A stretch of DNA of 64,000 nucleotides from an uncultured Acidobacteriota bacterium (GTDB lineage: Bacteria; Acidobacteriota; Thermoanaerobaculia; Gp7-AA8): the NCBI GenBank assembly GCA_963822445.1, contig CAWGHO010000002.1:32001-96000 (forward strand), written 5' to 3'. Positions 3,922 to 13,603 of this stretch are shown here, in pieces (within the stretch, counting starts at the first letter, position 1; each line of letters starts with the position of its first letter). The notes under the pieces were generated by a model that was not told where the DNA came from, did not search any database, and saw only the letters and a list, made by a program, of their open reading frames with translations. A program made the translations under genes and the position numbers.

Positions 3922-4182
3922 ATGAAGAATTTCGTTCGAATGCTGGCCCTGGCGCTCGCACTCACCGGACTCGCGGCGTGCGATTCACCGAAAGAAAACG
4001 CGACCGAGGAAAAGATCGAAGATGCGGGCGAAGCCGCCGGCAAGTCCGAGGATGCCGCCGAAGCGAACGCGGAAGCCGTGACCGACAGCGGCGCGACCGA
4101 TACGACCGGAACCACCGGAACCACGGGCACGACGACGACGCAGACCGAGACCTCGACGACGACGGTTACGACTACGACCTAG
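3922..4182 (+). CDS. small lipoprotein with Thr-rich tail
   Basis: Lipobox LAAC and low-complexity E/A/T region. Confidence 0.75.
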   Translation: MKNFVRMLALALALTGLAACDSPKENATEEKIEDAGEAAGKSEDAAEANAEAVTDSGATDTTGTTGTTGTTTTQTETSTTTVTTTT

Positions 4183-4194
4183 CAGCGGTCACGC

Positions 4195-5700
4195 TCATTT
4201 CCGGGTCATCATCTCCTCCCCGAACTTCACCGCGTCCGCTTTGTCCGCGCTCGTGAAGACGAATCGGAGGACCGAGCCTGTCCCGGGAATGAGCTCGACC
4301 CGCGCGCTTTCCGCCTCCGTGAACGGAGTGAGCTCGCCGGAGAGCCGTCCGATCGACGCGACCAGCGTCGTTCCGCGCTGCTCGACGGTGAGCGTTCCGT
4401 ACGTCGCACCTTCGTACCGGCCGGTGTACGCGCTGAGCGGATGCCCGAGCATCCACTTCCGCGCCGCGAGCTTTTCAACCTCGGCGACCGTGTTCGCTTT
4501 CACCGTGTCGAAACGCGCGCGGAGCTCCGCGAGCTTCTCCGTGTAGGTCTTGTCGACGTCCGGAACGTTCAGCAACCGGTCATACGCGTATGCGGACACG
4601 AGCTCGAGCGGCGAGTGCGACAGCCCCGCATTCGTCATCGCGCCGACGGCCATCTTCTTCCCGGGCAGGAACGAGTACACGGAGCGCCAGCCTTCGAACC
4701 CACCGCCGTGGTAGATCGCCTTCTCGCCGTGAAGATCCGACTGGTACCAGCCGAATCCGTATCCGGTGCCGTCGAAAATGAAGCTGTCGCGCTTCGCCGG
4801 CGTCTGCTCCTTGTGCGTCTCCGCGAACGCGGCCGCGGGGATGACCTGCCGCGATCCGATGCGGCCCTGCGTGAGATTGGCATTCAGGAACTTCGCGACG
4901 TCGGCGGGCGTCGTCGCGATTCCTCCCGCGGCGTGCATCATCGAGTCGTCCTTCCAGCCGTACTCCTGAATGGCCATGGCCCCCGTTCCGCTCATGTCGT
5001 ACGGCGTCGCGATCCGCTGTTTGCGCGCGGCGGACATGTAAGCAGTCGTGCGAGTCATGCCCAGCGGCTTGAAAACGCGCGACGCGAGCGCGTCCTGCCA
5101 CTTCTGACCGGTGAGGCGTTCGACGACCAGGCTGGCCACGACGTAGCCAAGGTTGTCGTAGCGGAAGTCTTCGTTGCGCGGCGTGCTCAGGCCGAGAATC
5201 CGCACCAGCTCCTGCGGCGTGTGATCGCCGGTGAACGCCGTGCGGTAGACGATCGCATTGTTCTGGATGTTCGAGGTGTGCGACAGCAACCGCCGCAGCG
5301 TCACCCGCGACGCATCGATCTCCGGCGGGAATCGCAATTCGGGAAGATAGGTCGTCACCGGCACGTCGAGATCGAGCACCCCCTCCTCGGCTAGCACCGT
5401 GCAGAGCAGCGCCGTGTACGCCTTCGTGTTCGAGCCGTTGTAGTAGATCGTGTCCGCGTCCGATGGCCGTTTCGTCGCGAGGTCCGCGTAGCCGTAGCCG
5501 CGCGCGTAAGTCTTTCCATCGTGAACGATCGACAGGCCGATGCTCGGGATCTCCGGAAGCGTCTGCAGCGTCTTGCCGACGAACCGGTCGATGTCCCGCA
5601 TCTGGGCATCGGTCCCAGGCAGCGGTGACGAACTGCACGAGATGAGAAACGTGAGGGCGAGGATCAGGAAGGAAACGCGAACCGCGGCGAATGGGTGCAT
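4195..5700 (-). CDS. serine hydrolase, beta-lactamase/AmpC-like, with C-terminal DUF3471-like domain
   Basis: SxxK (SNTK), LLSHTS, YxN (YDN), HGG and an N-terminal lipoprotein-like signal. Confidence 0.88.
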   Translation of the reverse strand: MHPFAAVRVSFLILALTFLISCSSSPLPGTDAQMRDIDRFVGKTLQTLPEIPSIGLSIVHDGKTYARGYGYADLATKRPSDADTIYYNGSNTKAYTALLCTVLAEEGVLDLDVPVTTYLPELRFPPEIDASRVTLRRLLSHTSNIQNNAIVYRTAFTGDHTPQELVRILGLSTPRNEDFRYDNLGYVVASLVVERLTGQKWQDALASRVFKPLGMTRTTAYMSAARKQRIATPYDMSGTGAMAIQEYGWKDDSMMHAAGGIATTPADVAKFLNANLTQGRIGSRQVIPAAAFAETHKEQTPAKRDSFIFDGTGYGFGWYQSDLHGEKAIYHGGGFEGWRSVYSFLPGKKMAVGAMTNAGLSHSPLELVSAYAYDRLLNVPDVDKTYTEKLAELRARFDTVKANTVAEVEKLAARKWMLGHPLSAYTGRYEGATYGTLTVEQRGTTLVASIGRLSGELTPFTEAESARVELIPGTGSVLRFVFTSADKADAVKFGEEMMTRK

Positions 5701-5730
5701 GCCGCCTCAGACGTCTCTTGGCGGCGATCG

Positions 5731-6516
5731 TTAGAACGTCATGCCCAGCGTGACGCCGACGTTCTTCCGCTCGACGAGCAGCACCGTCACTGACGCCTTG
5801 CGATGCGCATACGTGGCCGACAGATGCGTGTGCACGCCGTCGTTCATCAGCATCGCCGACACGCCTGGTAACACGCTCACGTTCACGCCGAACGGATAGA
5901 TCAGCCGCCGTTCATAGCCGCTGTAGCTCACGCCCGCGTACGGTCCGATGCGGCCGAGACCTTTGCTGACCGTGACGAAGTAAGCCTGCCCGGACGGTGT
6001 ACCGATGCGATCGGAGCTCGTGCCGAAAACGACAGCCGGCCGCGTTTTCGTTTCGCCGAGGGCTCGCCAGTTCGCGACGAGGCCGACTTCGTTCGCCTCC
6101 GCGTTCCACTCGACGCCGGCTTTCAGATCCTTCGTCAGACGATGGGTGATCACCGTGCGATGTGTGGCCCGATCGATCACCCCTTCGATGAAACGATGCG
6201 ACAGCTCCCAGCGATGCTTGTCCGAAGCGGTTCCCCGAACCGCGATCCCTTCGCCGGGTCAGCCGGGTCAACTGGGGACGAGCGACGGCTGACTCTTCTC
6301 GATGACCGCGCCTTCCGCGGCCAGCTCCAGCAGCGCGTCGTAGAGCTGGGCGAAACGCTCGGGATCGGAGAGGAACTCGGTGCGGCAATCCTCGAAGCGG
6401 AACTTGTACGTCTTCCCGCCATGTTCGACGGTCACCGCCGCCTCCCCCTTCGCCACGATGCACTCCTCGGGAGTGTGAATCGCGGCGAGAACGAAGAAGA
6501 CCGCGGCGAAGGTCAA
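5731..6516 (-). CDS. candidate UxxU selenoprotein: YHS-like domain, U-P-G-U, predicted outer-membrane beta-barrel (261 aa with read-through)
   Basis: ORFs 6268..6516 and 5731..6180 are in the same frame. The only stops between them are TGA at 6270-6268 and 6261-6259 (AGT TGA CCC GGC TGA CCC). A hairpin follows. The C-terminus ends VGVTLGMTF. The TTG start overlaps the upstream stop (TTGA). Confidence 0.7.
6223..6258 (-). promoter_or_regulatory. candidate bacterial SECIS element
   Basis: GCGGTTC-GGG-GAACCGC perfect stem with a G-rich loop 22 nt after the second UGA and 31 nt after the first. A lower CGAA/TTCG stem is also possible. Confidence 0.6.
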
Positions 6517-7145
6517 CGGCGAATGGCCTTTTCGATCTCGGCGAGCATCGCCGCGCGATCGGCTTCCCCGCCGTACCGCTTCACGATGCGTCCGTCGCGG
6601 CCGACCAGGACCAGCGACGGCAGCGCGTTGACTTTGTACGCGCTCCAGACCGCGGGCGTGGATTGCACGATCGGATACGTCACCTTCGCGGCCTTGGTCG
6701 CTTTCACGACGAGCGGCAACCGATCGTCGACAGTGACACCGACGACGGCGAATCCGCGATCCGCGTACTTCGCGTGGAGGGCCTGCAACTCAGGCAGCGC
6801 CTTCACGCAGGGCGGGCAGAACGTGCCCCAGAAATCGAGCAGCACGACCTGTCCGCGAAAGTCCTCGAGCGAGACCTGCCGTCCATCCAGTGCCTTCAGC
6901 GTGAATCCCGGCGCGGGCTTCCCTTCATCGGTGATCAGGAACTCGTCGGGGTTCTTCAGGAACTCGACTTTGCACTCCAGGCTGCAGAAGGCGTAGTCCT
7001 TCCCCTTGTACTTCGCGCGGGCCTTGACCGGCTCGAAGCCGGAGCCTTCCCGCGGTCCGCACACGGCGCAGACGGCCTGGTCTTCGGCCATCGCGGCAAA
7101 GGCGACGAGGGCAATCAGAGCGAGGATGATCAAGCGTCGGGTCAT
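6513..7145 (-). CDS. exported TlpA/redoxin-family thiol-disulfide oxidoreductase with N-terminal YHS/TRASH domain
   Basis: Signal peptide, CAVC...YAFCSLECKVEFLKNP (YHS), APGFTL and FWGTFCPPC (CxxC), cis-Pro ALP. Confidence 0.9.
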   Translation of the reverse strand: MTRRLIILALIALVAFAAMAEDQAVCAVCGPREGSGFEPVKARAKYKGKDYAFCSLECKVEFLKNPDEFLITDEGKPAPGFTLKALDGRQVSLEDFRGQVVLLDFWGTFCPPCVKALPELQALHAKYADRGFAVVGVTVDDRLPLVVKATKAAKVTYPIVQSTPAVWSAYKVNALPSLVLVGRDGRIVKRYGGEADRAAMLAEIEKAIRR

Positions 7146-7200
7146 GCTCCGAGCGTAACGTGGCGCGTGTGGAAACGCTTCCAGCCCGAACGCGGCGACG

Positions 7201-7587
7201 TCACATCTCGGTCTTCAGCATGACCTGCACGCGCTCCACAACGTCCGGCAGGCGGAACGGTTTGCCCATGAAACTGTCCGCGCCCGCTTCCATCGCCGCC
7301 GGCTTCTGACTGGCATCGGCGGAGATGACCAGGATCGCCACCGGGTGCGCTTCCCGAATCGCCTTCAGTCGTCCCAGCACCTCGATACCGCTCATCTCGG
7401 GCATCTGCAGATCGAGCAGGATCAGGTCATAGTCGTGCTGCAGGTGCAGCGCCGCAACCTCGGTCGATTCCAGAGTCGCCGTCACCGCGCCATACCCGGC
7501 GCGTCGCAGCGTGTGCTCGAGCAGACGAACATTCGATTTCTGATCGTCGACGATCAGGATTCGCGGACCGGGAGCTTCATTAGACAT
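7201..7587 (-). CDS. single-domain response regulator
   Basis: ILIVDD, LLDLQMP and KPF motifs. Confidence 0.9.
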   Translation of the reverse strand: MSNEAPGPRILIVDDQKSNVRLLEHTLRRAGYGAVTATLESTEVAALHLQHDYDLILLDLQMPEMSGIEVLGRLKAIREAHPVAILVISADASQKPAAMEAGADSFMGKPFRLPDVVERVQVMLKTEM

Positions 7588-9870: not shown

Positions 9871-11616
9871 ATGAAAGCCGTCCTGTCGAGCCGCTCTAAT
9901 CTCACCTCCTCCAAAGCGCCGACCGGGATCACCGGGCTGGATGAAATTACCGGTGGAGGCCTTCCTCGGGGCCGCACGACGCTGCTCGTCGGAGGATCGG
10001 GATCGGGCAAAACGATCCTCGGCACTGCAGTTTCTCGTTCACGGCGCGAAAGAGTGCGATGAGGCCGGCATCTTTGTCGCGTTCGAAGAGACGCCGTCGC
10101 GAATCGTCGTCGAACGCTGAAACGTTTCGGATGGGATCTCGAGGACCTGCAGAAAAAGAACCTGTACTTCATGGACGCGCAGCCCGCGCCCGATCTCGTA
10201 CAGTCCGGAACGTTCGATCTCAGCGGTATGCTCGCCGCACTGGGCGCGAAGGTCGAAGAAATCGGCGCCACACGCATCGTCTTCGATGCTTTGGACATCA
10301 TGCTGGCGCTGCTGGTCGATCCGACCGCGCAGAGACGCGAGATTTACCGGCTCCATGCCTGGCTGCTGCAGCACGAGCTCACGGGCATCATCACCTTGAA
10401 GGCCGACAGCGACGAGACCGGCTCCGTCAAACAGCCGTTCGGCTTCATGCAGTTCATGGTCGATTGCGCGGTCATCCTCAATCACACCGTCGTGCTCGGC
10501 GTGTCCCAGCGCAACCTGCGCGTCCAGAAATACCGCGGCTCGAGCTTCGATGAAAACGAGTCGCCGTTCCTGATCGGCAAAGGCGGATTCGAAGTCGCCG
10601 TAACCCGAACCCTCGGCCGCGGCGACGCCGAAGTGACGAACGAGCGCGTATCGAGCGGCGTCGCGCGCTTGGACACCATGCTCGGTGGCGGCTATTACCG
10701 CGGTGCTAGTGTGCTCATCACCGGCTTTCCCGGAACTGCGAAAACAACGCTGAGCGGTGCTTTCGCGGAGGCTGCCTGCGCGCGCGGCGAGCGGACGATG
10801 TTCGTCAGCTTCGATTCCGATTCCAACGAAGTAATCCGCAACCTCGGCTCGGTAGGCATCCAGCTCAATCGCTTCGTCGAGGACGGGACGCTGCACATGG
10901 TTTCCGCCCGCACAATCACCGGAAGCGCGGAAACCTACCTCGTGCGCATCAAGACCCTCGCAAAAGCGCATCGCGCGCGTTGCCTGGTCGTCGATCCGGT
11001 TTCGACACTATCGAAATCCGGCAATGAACTGACGGCACACAGTGTCGCGGAACGGCTCATCGACTGGTCCAAGGCCGAAGGAATCACTCTTGTCTGTACA
11101 AGCCTGCTCGATGAGATGTCCAGTCAGTCCGAAGCCGGCTCGCCTCTGCAGATTTCGACACTGGCCGACACCTGGATTCATCTCAATTACCTGGTACAGG
11201 CCGGTGAGCGCAATCGCGGCATGTCCATCATCAAGTCCCGCGGAACGGCGCACTCCAATCAGGTGCGCGAGCTGATTCTCAGCGACGCCGGAATTACAGT
11301 CACAGACGCGTACACGGCCGGCGGCGAAGTGCTCATGGGCACAATGCGCTGGGAAAAGGAAAGCGCCGAGCGTCATGCCTGCGAAATCGCGACGGTCGAG
11401 GCAAAGCTAAGAAGCGTGAAGCTGGAAGCCGAGGAGGCAGAGCTCGAAGCGCGGGTGAAGTCGCTGCAGGTCGAACTGGCGGCCAAGCTCACGGAGAAAG
11501 CGGTCCTGGCGCGAAGTGCTGAGGTTCACGAGCAGGAGTTGCTGCTGGGACGCGACAGAATGCGCGAGTTGCGCGGCAGCGACGTCACGTCAGAGGCTCT
11601 GAGTGTGTCGCGATGA
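9871..11616 (+). CDS. kaiC: circadian clock protein KaiC homolog; three +1 indels at about 10021, 10111 and 10125
   Basis: CI Walker A GSGSGKT. Removing three single bases gives ALQFLVHG...VAFEET...FGWDL in frame with ORF 10171..11616. Also KYRGS, a CII domain, and the ST phosphosite pair in QISTLADTW. Confidence 0.88.
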
Positions 11617-12086: not shown

Positions 12087-12195
12087 TATAGCTTGTCCGG
12101 CCGTCTCTCCGCTTCTCCCTCAGCCCTCAGAGAAGTACCCGTTGGGTGGCAATCGGGAGAATCGGGTTCAGGCGGCGCGATACTGAGAAGAAGGG

Positions 12196-12338
12196 TTCGT
12201 CCCGCTACGAATTCCGCCCGTGTTCGGATCGACGAATCCCTCCGGACTTTCGAGCGGGACGAAGTGCTTTGGCCCGAAACGCATTCTCAGATGCTGTCGG
12301 AGCACGACTCGACTATAGGCCTTGCGCGCGGCCAAAGC
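12196..12338 (+). ncRNA. IS110 bridge RNA (target-binding and donor-binding loops); the true 5' end is probably nearer 12100
   Basis: Two stem/internal-loop/stem modules whose loop strands match the target flanks (CCGCCCG, CCTCCGG) and the donor junction (CTCAGATG, CTATAGG). Confidence 0.82.
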
Positions 12339-12358
12339 CAACCCGAAGGGAGGGTGTG

Positions 12359-13603
12359 ATGAGCGAGTTCGAGTTTGGGGCGTTGGTGGGACTGGATTGG
12401 GGTGACACATCGCACGAGGTGGCTCTTTGGGACGAGCAACAGCAGACGTGCACGAAAGAGCGCATCGAGCACACGCCTGCGGCTCTGCGCGCATGGATCG
12501 AAGCGCTGCAGGTGCGCTTCGGCGGGGCACCGATCGCCGTGGCCATCGAGCAGTCCCGCGGCGCGGTCTTCGACGCGCTCAGCGGCTATCCGTTCGTCAC
12601 GTTGTATCCGATCAACCCACGCAGTGCAGCCCGGTATCGTGAGGCGTTTCATCCGAGCCTTTCGAAAGACGATCCGACCGACGCGGCGTCCTTGCTCGAC
12701 CTGCTTCGTAAGCACCGCAACGAGCTGCGCCCGTTCATCGCCGACGACGCTTCTACGCGTCTGCTGCGGCTTCTGACCGAGGATCGGCGGGAGCTCGTCG
12801 ATCAGAGGACGCAACACGTCCAACGCATGACCGATCGGCTCAAGACGTACTACCCGCAGGCGCTCCGGTGGGCCGGCGCGTTGATTACGGCGCAGGCCTG
12901 TGACTACCTCGAACGCTGGCCGACGCTCGAGGCCATCCAAAGGGCTCGGCCGTCCGCGATAAGGAGGTTCTATGAGCGTTATCATCACGCGGCCGCGTGG
13001 ATCGACCAGAAGCTCGCCGAGATCCGTTCAGAGGTCGCGTTCCACGACGATCAGGTCACCACTGACGCTGCCGTGCTGCTGATCGGAAGCGAGGTTGCGC
13101 AGATCCGGGCTCTCAACGCGAGCATCGCCACGTACGACCAGAAGATCTCGGCGGCGTTCGCCGCCCACCAGGACGCGTCGATCTTCGCGAGCTTCCCTGG
13201 CGCCGGCCAACAGCTCGCGCCGCGGCTCGCCGCCGCCTTCGGGACCGATCGCAAGCGCTTCGGCAGCGCCGTCAACGTCGCCACCCGAAGCGGCATCGCC
13301 CCGGTTCTCCGCCGGAGCGGCAAAACGGCGGTCGTACACATGCGCTGGGCTTGTCCGAAGTTCCTGCGTCAGACGTTCCATGAGTACGCCCGCGTGTCGA
13401 TCGGTCAGTCCCTATGGGCTCGAGCCTTCTACAAGCAGCAACGCGCGCGCGGACACAGCCACCACGAGGCTATCCGCACGCTCGCTTACCGCTGGATCCG
13501 CGTCCTTTACGCCTGCTGGAACAATCGCACCGTCTACGACGAAGCTCTCTATCTGCGGCAGCTCGCCACCCGAGGCTCAACCCTCGCCACAGCTGCTCCC
13601 TGA
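12359..13603 (+). CDS. IS110-family transposase/recombinase (DEDD RuvC-like plus Tnp20 domain)
   Basis: GLDW, AIE, KDDPTDA, PGAG and GIAPVLRRSG (catalytic Ser). RBS GGGAGGG. Confidence 0.95.
   Translation: MSEFEFGALVGLDWGDTSHEVALWDEQQQTCTKERIEHTPAALRAWIEALQVRFGGAPIAVAIEQSRGAVFDALSGYPFVTLYPINPRSAARYREAFHPSLSKDDPTDAASLLDLLRKHRNELRPFIADDASTRLLRLLTEDRRELVDQRTQHVQRMTDRLKTYYPQALRWAGALITAQACDYLERWPTLEAIQRARPSAIRRFYERYHHAAAWIDQKLAEIRSEVAFHDDQVTTDAAVLLIGSEVAQIRALNASIATYDQKISAAFAAHQDASIFASFPGAGQQLAPRLAAAFGTDRKRFGSAVNVATRSGIAPVLRRSGKTAVVHMRWACPKFLRQTFHEYARVSIGQSLWARAFYKQQRARGHSHHEAIRTLAYRWIRVLYACWNNRTVYDEALYLRQLATRGSTLATAAP

Follow-up and report, generated by a model that had tools for sequence, protein, structure and literature searches.

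The minus-strand segment 6516..5731 of the window, that is, of the whole 64,000-nucleotide stretch of DNA analyzed here, is almost certainly one gene, which is predicted to encode an exported protein with two selenocysteines (Sec) in a U-x-x-U motif. The complete picture of a two-Sec exported barrel protein that operates by the thioredoxin/metal mechanism proposed below is considered likely. An initial annotation had interpreted the locus as an undescribed exported U-x-x-U protein, an interpretation that is supported by the comparative data. The features of the locus, all on the minus strand, are as follows.

5731..6516, minus: complete selenoprotein gene of 261 codons and a TAA stop, with both TGA codons read as Sec
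6475..6516, minus: TTG start and short hydrophobic signal-like N-terminus MTFAAVFFVLAAIH, from the translation
6343..6456, minus: YHS/TRASH-like domain, residues 21-58, from a sub-threshold Pfam match and a model
6247..6285, minus: motif S-L-V-P-S-U-P-G-U-P-G-E-G, residues 78-90, from alignment A1 and codon counts in 42 sequences
6268..6270, minus: UGA-1, predicted Sec83; TGA in 42 of 42 sequences, aligned with Cys in Armatimonadota homologues
6259..6261, minus: UGA-2, predicted Sec86; TGA in 42 of 42 sequences, aligned with Cys in Armatimonadota homologues
6227..6243, minus: SECIS-like hairpin GCGGUUC-GGG-GAACCGC, 7 bp here and 8 bp in most relatives
5734..6210, minus: predicted 12-stranded outer-membrane-type beta-barrel, residues ~103-261, with terminal Phe, from an AlphaFold model
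6513..7145, minus: partner gene with signal peptide, YHS and TlpA/ResA-like thioredoxin domain (C-P-P-C) by Pfam; its stop overlaps the selenoprotein start

A reading frame with two in-frame TGA codons

On the minus strand, two ORFs share a frame: one of 82 codons (6516..6268), which starts with TTG, and one of 149 codons (6180..5731), which starts with GTG. They are separated by TGA (codon 83), CCC GGC, TGA (codon 86) and 26 sense codons (87-112). The initial annotation had claimed one frame interrupted by TGA-CCC-GGC-TGA, which the ORF coordinates and the read-through translation bear out. The translation it proposed is correct, with the C-terminus ...GMTF before the stop, and the exact 9-nt tandem that it reported, TGACCCGGC, is present at 6270-6253. 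Its caveat that one of the two TGAs might be an artefact of this duplication is refuted, because the exact tandem occurs in only 12 of 42 sequences whereas both TGAs are kept in all 42 aligned orthologues, and because the Pro codons at the motif (CCC, CCG, CCT or CCA) and the residue between both Sec (Gly, Leu, Val or Thr) vary. More generally, the Pro, Gly and Glu codons that flank the TGAs vary synonymously among these orthologues.

A search of 61 genomes with the read-through protein returned 16 full-length matches, all of which carry exactly two in-frame TGA codons. With a profile of the C-terminal part, matches were obtained in 32 of the 401 genomes of a phylum sample; the 32 profile rows that begin at position 1, and thus span the motif, likewise all hold exactly two. 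As judged from these alignments, the TGA pattern is far beyond chance. Coding conservation extends to both sides of the TGAs, and the frame is preserved together with them across many families. In the read-through frame, the 24 codons after UGA-2 show 6/4/15 variable sites at the three codon positions among 12 genus members, and the whole stretch of 26 codons from UGA-2 to the GTG is conserved at the protein level with third-position drift. Both positions hold TGA or Cys in homologues, which show neither TAA/TAG nor a frame break there. Conservation upstream of the barrel, a lack of which would have spoken against a single protein, is evident from the motif, whose residues S78, P81, U83, G85, U86, P87, G88, E89 and G90 are invariant in alignment A1; its family-wide form reads S-x-V-P-S-U-P-x-U-P-G-E-G.

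Cysteine homologues run continuously through the Sec site. In P0036, P0040, P0044, P0088 and P0028, P-T-C-A-G-C-A-G-E aligns with P-S-U-P-G-U-P-G-E, and the corresponding residues of P0034 are C-A-L-C. A search for further Cys-form loci, based on a four-sequence alignment, yielded 16 additional loci with the pattern L-x-x-T-C-A-G-C-A, 14 of them labelled Armatimonadota or kin. Armatimonadota Cys forms contain two to three YHS/TRASH domains, and at two of nine Armatimonadota loci a thioredoxin gene is directly adjacent. Since selA is also present in four of five Armatimonadota genomes with the Cys form, Sec use would be a lineage choice. Public gene records enter the 82-aa product as a separate protein, and those of relatives hold truncated hypothetical proteins that begin after UGA-2.

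Hairpin and machinery for selenocysteine insertion

Comparison of the orthologues shows a single conserved hairpin, the predicted SECIS element, directly downstream of both UGAs. Its apical loop GGG (6236-6234) is located 22 nt past UGA-2 and 31 nt past UGA-1, and its MFE amounts to -10.6 kcal/mol (z -3.07). The hairpin agrees in loop, stem, spacing and MFE with the published bSECIS model, which calls for a 4-16 bp stem, a loop of 3-9 nt with G in its first two positions, a UGA-to-loop distance of 16-37 nt and an MFE of at most -7.5 (PMC13188914). In the alignment of 42 sequences, pairing holds for 90.8% of cells; 34 cells are compensatory, and six of the eight pairs show compensatory changes. 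None of 500 shuffles reaches the observed values, and windows slid along the alignment are 24-59% paired. Five of the 42 sequences have a weaker, interrupted hairpin in place of the canonical one. Folding of the 68-nt region around the UGAs gave a structure no better than shuffles (z -0.59), so that only the short hairpin stands out. An Rfam scan of 5600-7300 at E <= 10 returned chance-level matches and no SECIS family, as is expected for bacterial SECIS elements.

A host without Sec machinery would have argued against the selenoprotein reading, as the initial annotation pointed out. The window's genome contains selA (488.6 bits), selB (368.6 bits), selD (371 bits) and tRNA-Sec (71.1 bits), all of which exceed their curated cut-offs. 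As shown by this gene content, the host should be able to make and insert Sec. In addition, selA was detected in all five other carrier genomes tested. The selD gene of the window's genome has an in-frame TGA of its own.

A reassigned genetic code was also considered and is excluded, because TGA serves as an ordinary stop elsewhere in these genomes, where it terminates the upstream gene and several orthologues.

The predicted exported barrel and its thioredoxin partner

The TTG start at 6516-6514 and the stop of the upstream gene, TGA, overlap in the sequence TTGA; orthologues use GTG or ATG at the equivalent place. The signal peptide of the window's genus is without a charged n-region; canonical signal peptides are found in more distant orthologues, e.g. 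MKRFLSAVFLIVASITG. A frameshift fusion of both window genes was rejected, given that the more distant split forms carry canonical signal peptides of their own.

The profile points weakly to the YHS domain named in the initial annotation, as Pfam PF04945 scores 24.9 bits (E 2e-5) on the 82-aa part against a gathering threshold of 30.3, and the modelled secondary structure, a beta-hairpin with helices at pLDDT 82-91, is compatible with a YHS domain and provides no argument against one. At least 90% of sequences retain the near-invariant cysteines C19 and C44, and Cys-form relatives reach 54.8 bits with the same profile. For the motif segment that follows, both models give low confidence (pLDDT 51 and 47-64), so that its position at the barrel mouth is tentative.

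The C-terminal part is very likely an outer-membrane barrel, in line with the Phe-ending barrel of the initial annotation, for which the 12-stranded AlphaFold model (pLDDT 89.1, pTM 0.83) and its structural matches speak. DSSP assigns 13 strand elements to this model, two of which are halves of one strand. By VIA-align, the best-matching folds include the COG4313 channel (Z 16.1), KdgM (16.1), FapF (16.0) and NanC (13.9), with rmsd values of 2.3-2.9 over 150-163 residues and identities of 9-14% for COG4313, KdgM/NanC and FapF; Foldseek retrieved the same barrel families. Complete orthologues that were examined end in Phe or Trp, with the exception of L046, which has extra residues past the Phe. 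Automatic Atlas names (DUF3570-like, and YjbH/BcsS for an Armatimonadota cluster) were discarded, since Pfam scans of the window protein, P0040 and P0028 gave no support for them.

Immediately upstream, the partner gene encodes a predicted thioredoxin fold with C-x-x-C and an N-terminal hydrophobic leader. Its Pfam scores are 87.6 bits for Redoxin, 80.8 for AhpC-TSA and 33.0 for YHS. The protein is assigned here to the TlpA/ResA superfamily only, because it stays below the NCBIfam equivalog cut-offs of both ResA (99 vs 170) and TlpA (55.3 vs 230). The thioredoxin is encoded by a translationally coupled upstream gene in the genus of the window, and most other members of the phylum, labelled Acidobacteriota in one database, have it fused to the N-terminus of the barrel protein. 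W-x-T-x-C-x-x-C occurs in frame 130-165 residues before Sec-1 at 22 of 29 other phylum loci, frequently with a His-rich linker in between, Pfam confirmed the fused thioredoxin domain in all four proteins tested, and a redoxin domain is fused or adjacent at all ten loci examined in context. These comparisons show that the predicted barrel selenoprotein is always accompanied by a TlpA-like, putatively periplasmic thioredoxin, and the two are probably coupled functionally. The "non-thioredoxin architecture" of the initial annotation hence applies to the split gene of the window only and fails for most relatives, in which the U-x-x-U barrel is fused to a TlpA-like domain. Even in these fused relatives, both Sec are positioned outside the thioredoxin fold. 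No CcdA/DsbD-type electron donor is encoded among the neighbours of the window gene or of the context loci.

Every architecture has a putative metal-binding accessory of the YHS, His-rich or Cys-rich type. A YHS accessory is present in the window and at four of 29 phylum loci, a His-rich linker with at least three His within the 40 residues preceding the motif at 12, and a C-x-x-C-W-x-E domain at ten. Copper genes were found nearby at only two of the ten context loci, one with a CopA-like ATPase with YHS, the other with a multicopper oxidase with DUF305 and a cation-efflux gene. The neighbours in the window (a hybrid histidine kinase, a response regulator and a beta-lactamase-family hydrolase) are uninformative on metals.

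Proposed function and relation to known systems

Presumably, the N-terminal parts reside in the periplasm, where the thioredoxin domain would hold the U-x-x-U pair as a reduced diselenolate, placed within the periplasmic mouth of the barrel or next to it. This diselenolate may bind a soft metal with high affinity, Cu(I) being the most likely one, and the metal would be supplied by the YHS domain, the His-rich linker or the Cys-rich N-terminal domain, depending on the lineage. The metal could then be passed through, or gated at, an outer-membrane channel in a PcoB-like manner. For the reduction step, an analogy is offered by TlpA, which reduces the vicinal Cys pairs of ScoI and CoxB and keeps them reduced before copper binding (PMC6669012). 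Both systems would combine a periplasmic TlpA-type thioredoxin with a partner that has two vicinal chalcogen ligands. The target of TlpA in the ScoI/CoxB case is a Cys pair on an inner-membrane-anchored thioredoxin-fold chaperone, whereas here it would be Sec-x-x-Sec on an outer-membrane barrel, the relay being proposed by analogy; unlike in the TlpA-ScoI/CoxB system, reductase and target are often one polypeptide in the present family. Whether metal handling rather than pure redox catalysis is the function appears evenly balanced, and copper specifically is a possible but somewhat doubtful assignment.

The U-x-x-U pair might instead be a catalytic redox centre and no metal site, i.e. a thioredoxin-fed diselenide/selenol couple at the outer membrane. 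Such a couple could reduce a periplasmic or incoming oxidant (peroxide, selenite/tellurite, disulfides, polysulfides) or redox-gate the pore; in either version, this is a tentative alternative that we regard as rather unlikely. U-P-G-U resembles dithiol active-site motifs, and the obligate TlpA-like pairing is what a redox relay requires. Moreover, known selenoproteins are mostly described as oxidoreductases with U-x-x-C or C-x-x-U (PMC13188914). However, the motif lies in a segment that is modelled as flexible, with no surrounding fold for an active site, and the context loci feature no peroxidase-type or reductase-type neighbours. Likewise, accessories of three kinds that replace one another (YHS, His-rich linker, Cys-rich domain) fit metal capture better than redox catalysis.

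An autotransporter-like display, in which the barrel would export a thioredoxin/YHS passenger to the surface with the U-x-x-U linker in the pore or outside, is improbable. The order of signal peptide, passenger, linker and C-terminal 12-stranded barrel matches type Va, autotransporter beta-domains rank near the top of the structural matches (EstA Z 15.6, AIDA-I 14.9, Hbp 13.9, NalP 13.9), and the structural alignments extend back to model residues 5-8. Yet pLDDT is low where the model aligns with the pore-filling linker, the barrel comprises ~160 residues as compared to 245-300 in autotransporter beta-domains, and the thioredoxin of the window and its genus is a separate secreted protein without a barrel. 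A TlpA-like reductase also requires periplasmic electron donors, as in TlpA/ResA/DsbE. Finally, two independent genes (a YHS protein with a true TGA stop and a barrel protein), a decaying pseudogene or an assembly artefact are most improbable even though public gene calls split the locus likewise, because the comparative data contradict them: all 42 sequences preserve the frame and both TGAs, Cys homologues are continuous, the stretch from UGA-2 to the GTG shows protein-level conservation, and the 149-aa ORF would, by the model, be a barrel without its first strand and without a signal peptide.

Among known proteins, the best functional analogue of the proposed two-Sec channel is PcoB/CopB (PDB 7PGE), a 12-stranded copper barrel following a disordered N-terminal region rich in metal ligands (His/Met), which is reported to be needed for function (PMC9210255; PMC12509749). 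Unlike the window protein, PcoB uses His/Met ligands and has neither a Sec or Cys pair nor a thioredoxin partner. Pfam gave no CopB match to the window protein at E <= 1, and the alignment of its barrel with 7pge_B (Z 9.1, rmsd 4.6, 154 aligned) scores well below those with unrelated 12-stranded barrels. The COG4313 channel, KdgM/NanC and FapF have their fold in common with the window barrel, without family membership, a Sec/Cys pair or a thioredoxin. In FapF, an N-terminal periplasmic extension plugs the pore.

The initial annotation had traced U-x-x-U to SelL-type proteins, which has to be corrected, as Table 1 of a 2026 review contains three prokaryotic U-x-x-U families: a Prx-like thiol:disulfide oxidoreductase (PF00578), the metal-binding NF041115 and an FmdB-family regulator (PMC13188914). 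In the Prx-like family, as given there, UxxC/UxxU is the oxidoreductase motif itself, whereas the thioredoxin here keeps C-x-P-C and the Sec pair follows 130-165 residues downstream. An NCBIfam search produced no match to NF041115 and no selenoprotein model above its cut-off. SelL/SelL-related NF040769, a thioredoxin-fold family whose Sec pair is in the active site, does not match the read-through protein; the thioredoxin domain, in which Cys is kept, matches it weakly, with 19.2 bits when adjacent and 16.5-18.3 bits when fused (cut-off 120). The YHS domain-containing (seleno)protein NF041384 is likewise exported and combines YHS with Sec. Its model, as published, covers 113 positions with one Sec in G-x-U and includes no barrel, whereas the Sec pair of the window protein lies outside the YHS region; the window protein reaches 20.6 bits with this model, whose cut-off is 70. 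Precedents for Sec in outer-membrane barrels are listed for GSU2204/MtrB-PioB (NF041027) and an FCYXU-type TonB-dependent receptor (NF049945) (PMC13188914). The window protein matches neither model. According to their entries, both are large barrels with one Sec each, in contrast to the small 12-stranded barrel with a pre-barrel Sec pair described here.

Neither Pfam nor NCBIfam provides a model for the family, which is also absent from the 2026 inventory of 119 prokaryotic selenoprotein families. No description of it emerged from a full-text search of openly accessible main texts, together with Table 1 of PMC13188914, PMC9312934 and PMC12013277, and the same literature yielded no account of a fusion of thioredoxin, chalcogen pair and outer-membrane barrel. 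The family thus appears to have been missed by current inventories and annotation pipelines. It comprises 259 representatives at E <= 1e-3, the nearest Atlas cluster having 1183 members, and would amount to at least several hundred clusters that gene callers split or truncate. In the absence of an NCBIfam or Pfam model, the selenoproteomes of these soil bacteria are therefore undercounted.

Taken together, the predicted proteins would form a fourth prokaryotic U-x-x-U family and the first with the Sec pair outside any globular fold. With considerable reservation, they may represent the first outer-membrane channel with a diselenolate entrance that is recharged by a fused or coupled thioredoxin, a metal or redox gate in a dominant soil phylum, in which one SECIS would decode two UGAs nine nucleotides apart. 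For the question of how SelB copes with two neighbouring UGAs and a single hairpin, the locus would be a well-defined natural model. That YHS, His-rich and Cys-rich accessories can replace one another points toward trace-metal handling, and the fused architecture suggests that periplasmic redox power may be used directly at an outer-membrane pore.

Two in-frame UGA codons in a conserved gene

In the ORF list, the gene under study is split into two pieces:

6516..6268, reverse strand: ORF of 82 codons with a TTG start
6180..5731, reverse strand: ORF of 149 codons with a GTG start, in the same frame as the 82-codon ORF

The initial annotation had placed both in one frame broken by TGA-CCC-GGC-TGA and 26 sense codons leading to the GTG, and all features it described are indeed present. 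Translation of 6516..5731 (reverse strand) with TGA read as selenocysteine (Sec, U) yields 261 residues with U at positions 83 and 86 (...SLVPS-U-PG-U-PGEGIAVRGTASDKHRWELSHRF...) and the C-terminus ...GMTF. In the sequence TTGA, the TTG start and the TGA that ends the preceding gene overlap. Around the Sec pair, the DNA reads AGT TGA CCC GGC TGA CCC GGC GAA, an exact 9-nt tandem that had raised the suspicion of one UGA being a duplication artefact.

A search with the read-through protein against 61 genomes, of which 60 were relatives and one was the window's own, returned 16 full-length matches of 37-99% identity, each with exactly two in-frame TGA codons, and two weak rows that cover the YHS part only and contain no stops; the gene is present in 13 of 34 other genus members. 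A C-terminal profile run over 401 phylum-sampled genomes matched 32 genomes from 26 of 228 genera, with two TGA codons in all 32 rows that start at profile position 1, the single leftover row covering just the C-terminal end of a match that was split. One matched genome (G107), flagged as unpublished, was counted in tallies and excluded from alignments, and it is the sole basis of no conclusion. Both positions are TGA in every one of 42 non-redundant sequences. For the first Pro, CCC occurs 19 times, CCG 17 times and CCT 5 times, with AGT once in its place; between the two Sec, the codon is GGC/GGT, CTT/CTC/TTG, GTC or ACC, and the Pro, Gly, Glu and Gly codons that come next each vary synonymously. 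Because the 9-nt tandem is exact in only 12 of the 42 sequences, the duplication is not an artefact and the earlier caveat falls away.

Among 12 genus members, variable sites in the 24 codons after the second UGA number 6, 4 and 15 at the first, second and third positions of the read-through frame; seven of these codons vary only synonymously in this frame and none in either other frame. Given this coding-type variation and both TGAs in every sequence, the ORF list's picture of two separate genes is highly implausible. Residues S78, P81, U83, G85, U86, P87, G88, E89, G90, R94 and G95 are invariant in the protein alignment. The gene is a real and conserved one, belonging to what is very probably a two-selenocysteine outer-membrane protein family.

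Predicted selenocysteine insertion and cysteine-containing relatives

For 16 sequences, RNAalifold gave an 8-bp hairpin immediately 3' of the motif S-x-V-P-S-U-P-x-U-P-G-E-G, which in the window corresponds to:

6243-6227, reverse strand: hairpin GCGGUUC-GGG-GAACCGC, MFE -10.6 kcal/mol, z -3.07

Over the 42 sequences, 90.8% of cells are paired, with both-sided changes in six of eight pairs (34 cells), while none of 500 shuffles reached any of five hairpin measures and a slid 3' partner pairs in 24-59%. Several of the compensatory changes, e.g. GTT/GGA to GTC/GGG, leave the encoded residue unchanged in both arms, which argues for selection at the RNA level. The loop starts 22 nt after the second and 31 nt after the first UGA, the two being nine nucleotides apart. 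Loop, G positions, spacing and MFE all lie within the bSECIS consensus of PMC13188914 (loop of 3-9 nt, G in the first two loop positions, spacing of 16-37 nt, MFE <= -7.5). The anticipated 3' SECIS was found as a conserved, covarying structure. Five of the 42 sequences, a group in which R-A-V-S-G-A follows the motif, have in its place a weaker, interrupted hairpin that folds no better than shuffles. Rfam holds no family matching the hairpin. One orthologue (L069, G339:C94) keeps both TGAs and the hairpin; its translation departs from all others after about 100 barrel residues and its thioredoxin part is in frame only partly, which is suggestive of frameshifting, gene decay or misassembly.

The Sec machinery is present in the window's genome, each component scoring above its cut-off:

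selA: 488.6 bits (cut-off 267.9)
selB: 368.6 bits (cut-off 242.25)
selD, outside the window (L010, at G000:C2:1710833-1711771 of the same genome): 371 bits (cut-off 125), one in-frame TGA in the full-length match
tRNA-Sec: 71.1 bits (cut-off 47)

Judging from this in-frame TGA, the host's selenophosphate synthetase is apparently itself a selenoprotein.

Against 1.84 billion representatives, a profile search returned 259 matches at E <= 1e-3. Among the 150 matches listed, most start past profile position 13, i.e. 3' of the second UGA, the pattern that gene callers terminating at the TGAs would produce. Six of those listed start at position 1-4, of which four (P0036, P0040, P0044 and P0088) align C-A-G-C with U-P-G-U, one has C-V-G-W and one lacks Cys; two longer proteins carry C-A-G-C (P0028) and C-A-L-C (P0034). 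A pattern scan yielded 16 Cys-form loci, 14 of them labelled Chthonomonas, Fimbriimonadaceae or Armatimonadota. The other two (L089 and L092) stem from assemblies labelled Methyloversatilis and Synechococcus and encode proteins of nearly the same type as those from Armatimonadota; the assemblies may be mislabelled or the bins mixed. Apart from the C-V-G-W match and the one lacking Cys, the homologues have either TGA or, in Armatimonadota relatives, a Cys pair at the two positions. As selA scored above its curated cut-off in four of five tested Cys-form Armatimonadota genomes (G444-G447; via L081, L082, L085 and L087), Cys is not forced there by missing Sec machinery.

Barrel architecture and database status

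The N-terminus is a short hydrophobic leader, with canonical signal peptides in more distant split forms. Of the proposed YHS domain (residues 21-58), the Pfam match stayed below threshold (24.9 vs 30.3 bits), and the region is modelled as a beta-hairpin plus helices (pLDDT 82-91). As for the suggested outer-membrane barrel ending in Phe, the C-terminal 184 residues (79-row alignment) are predicted to form an all-beta barrel (pLDDT 89.1, pTM 0.83), whose top structural matches are 12-stranded outer-membrane barrels, namely a COG4313 channel (Z 16.1), KdgM (Z 16.1), FapF (Z 16.0), autotransporter beta-domains (Z 13.6-15.6) and NanC (Z 13.9); PcoB reaches Z 9.1. Foldseek was concordant. The motif segment is placed poorly (pLDDT 47-64), and the barrel falls outside every Pfam and NCBIfam model.

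A 2026 inventory lists 119 prokaryotic selenoprotein families, none of them a two-Sec outer-membrane barrel; its U-x-x-U entries are a Prx-like oxidoreductase, NF041115 and an FmdB-family protein only, its outer-membrane barrels GSU2204/MtrB-PioB and the FCYXU TonB receptor only (PMC13188914 Table 1). The deep-Sep study covers one Acidobacteriota genome and reports no new selenoprotein there (PMC12013277). Full-text searches of freely available main texts revealed nothing closer. Public collections hold the 82-aa piece as a separate protein and relatives as 'hypothetical protein', one labelled Acidobacteriota; the nearest Atlas cluster has 1183 members, most commonly from Acidobacteriota, and no common Pfam family. 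Apparently, this two-Sec family has so far been undescribed.

Thioredoxin partner and a possible metal site

Directly upstream lies a candidate partner gene:

7145..6513, reverse strand: signal peptide, YHS (33.0 bits) and Redoxin/AhpC-TSA (87.6 / 80.8 bits) domains with C-P-P-C

Of the 29 loci that the phylum search supplied, 22 (or 21 of 28 when the unpublished genome is left aside) have W-x-T-x-C-x-x-C in frame 130-165 residues before the first Sec and thus encode fusions of about 385-500 residues; in all four fusions tested, Pfam confirmed the redoxin domain. It is fused or directly adjacent in 10 of 10 context-examined loci, in one genome downstream instead of upstream. In Armatimonadota, a thioredoxin gene adjoins the Cys form in two of nine loci, and a separate YHS/TRASH gene adjoins the short form in two of nine. 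Such fusions and permutations are standard evidence for parts working together, and they suggest as much for thioredoxin and barrel. The association of the two-Sec exported barrel protein with a TlpA-like thioredoxin is thereby shown.

A single putative metal-binding accessory accompanies each architecture. It is YHS in the window's genus and 4/29 loci, a linker having 3-9 His among the 40 residues that precede the motif in 12/29, or, in 10/29 (all with few His in the linker), an N-terminal Cys-rich C-x-x-C-W-x-E domain of about 110 residues. The latter (consensus G-Q-V-V-C-x-x-C-W-x-E-A-D-R ... C-A-x-x-C; fused proteins at L047, L048, L051, L052, L055, L057, L062, L063, L064 and L066) has no Pfam or NCBIfam match. 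Armatimonadota long forms possess two or three YHS/TRASH domains. Copper genes are nearby in two of ten loci, one with a CopA-like P-type ATPase (YHS and HMBD), PCYCGC and DUF4198, the other with a multicopper oxidase, DUF305 and a cation-efflux protein; a Cu/Zn superoxide dismutase is encoded near one Armatimonadota locus. The genes neighbouring the window's copy (hybrid histidine kinase, response regulator, beta-lactamase-family hydrolase) are uninformative on metals. Elsewhere in the window are found:

10171-11616, forward strand: KaiC-family ATPase (193.4 bits), adjoining the hybrid histidine kinase/response regulator pair upstream of the two genes
12146-13603, forward strand: IS110-family transposase (DEDD_Tnp_IS110 97.8, Transposase_20 42.9 bits), ~5.6 kb from the two genes
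3922-4182, forward strand: 86-codon ORF (ORF list only) whose leader resembles that of a lipoprotein (…LALTGLAAC) and whose C-terminus is repetitive and rich in Thr (TTGTTGTTGTTTTQTETSTTTVTTTT)

A purely redox role of U-x-x-U is conceivable, if rather unlikely. Autotransporter-like display of the N-terminal domains, for which the autotransporter beta-domains among the best barrel matches would speak, appears improbable. A metal-related function is proposed by analogy with two systems. In ScoI and CoxB, the Cys pairs that bind copper are held reduced by TlpA until metallation (PMC6669012). A TlpA-like partner likewise accompanies U-x-x-U here. PcoB, a 12-stranded copper barrel, requires its disordered His/Met N-terminus for resistance (PMC9210255, PMC12509749). 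By this analogy, the thioredoxin would hold the U-x-x-U pair in the reduced state, and the resulting diselenolate may bind a soft metal where the pore opens to the periplasm.
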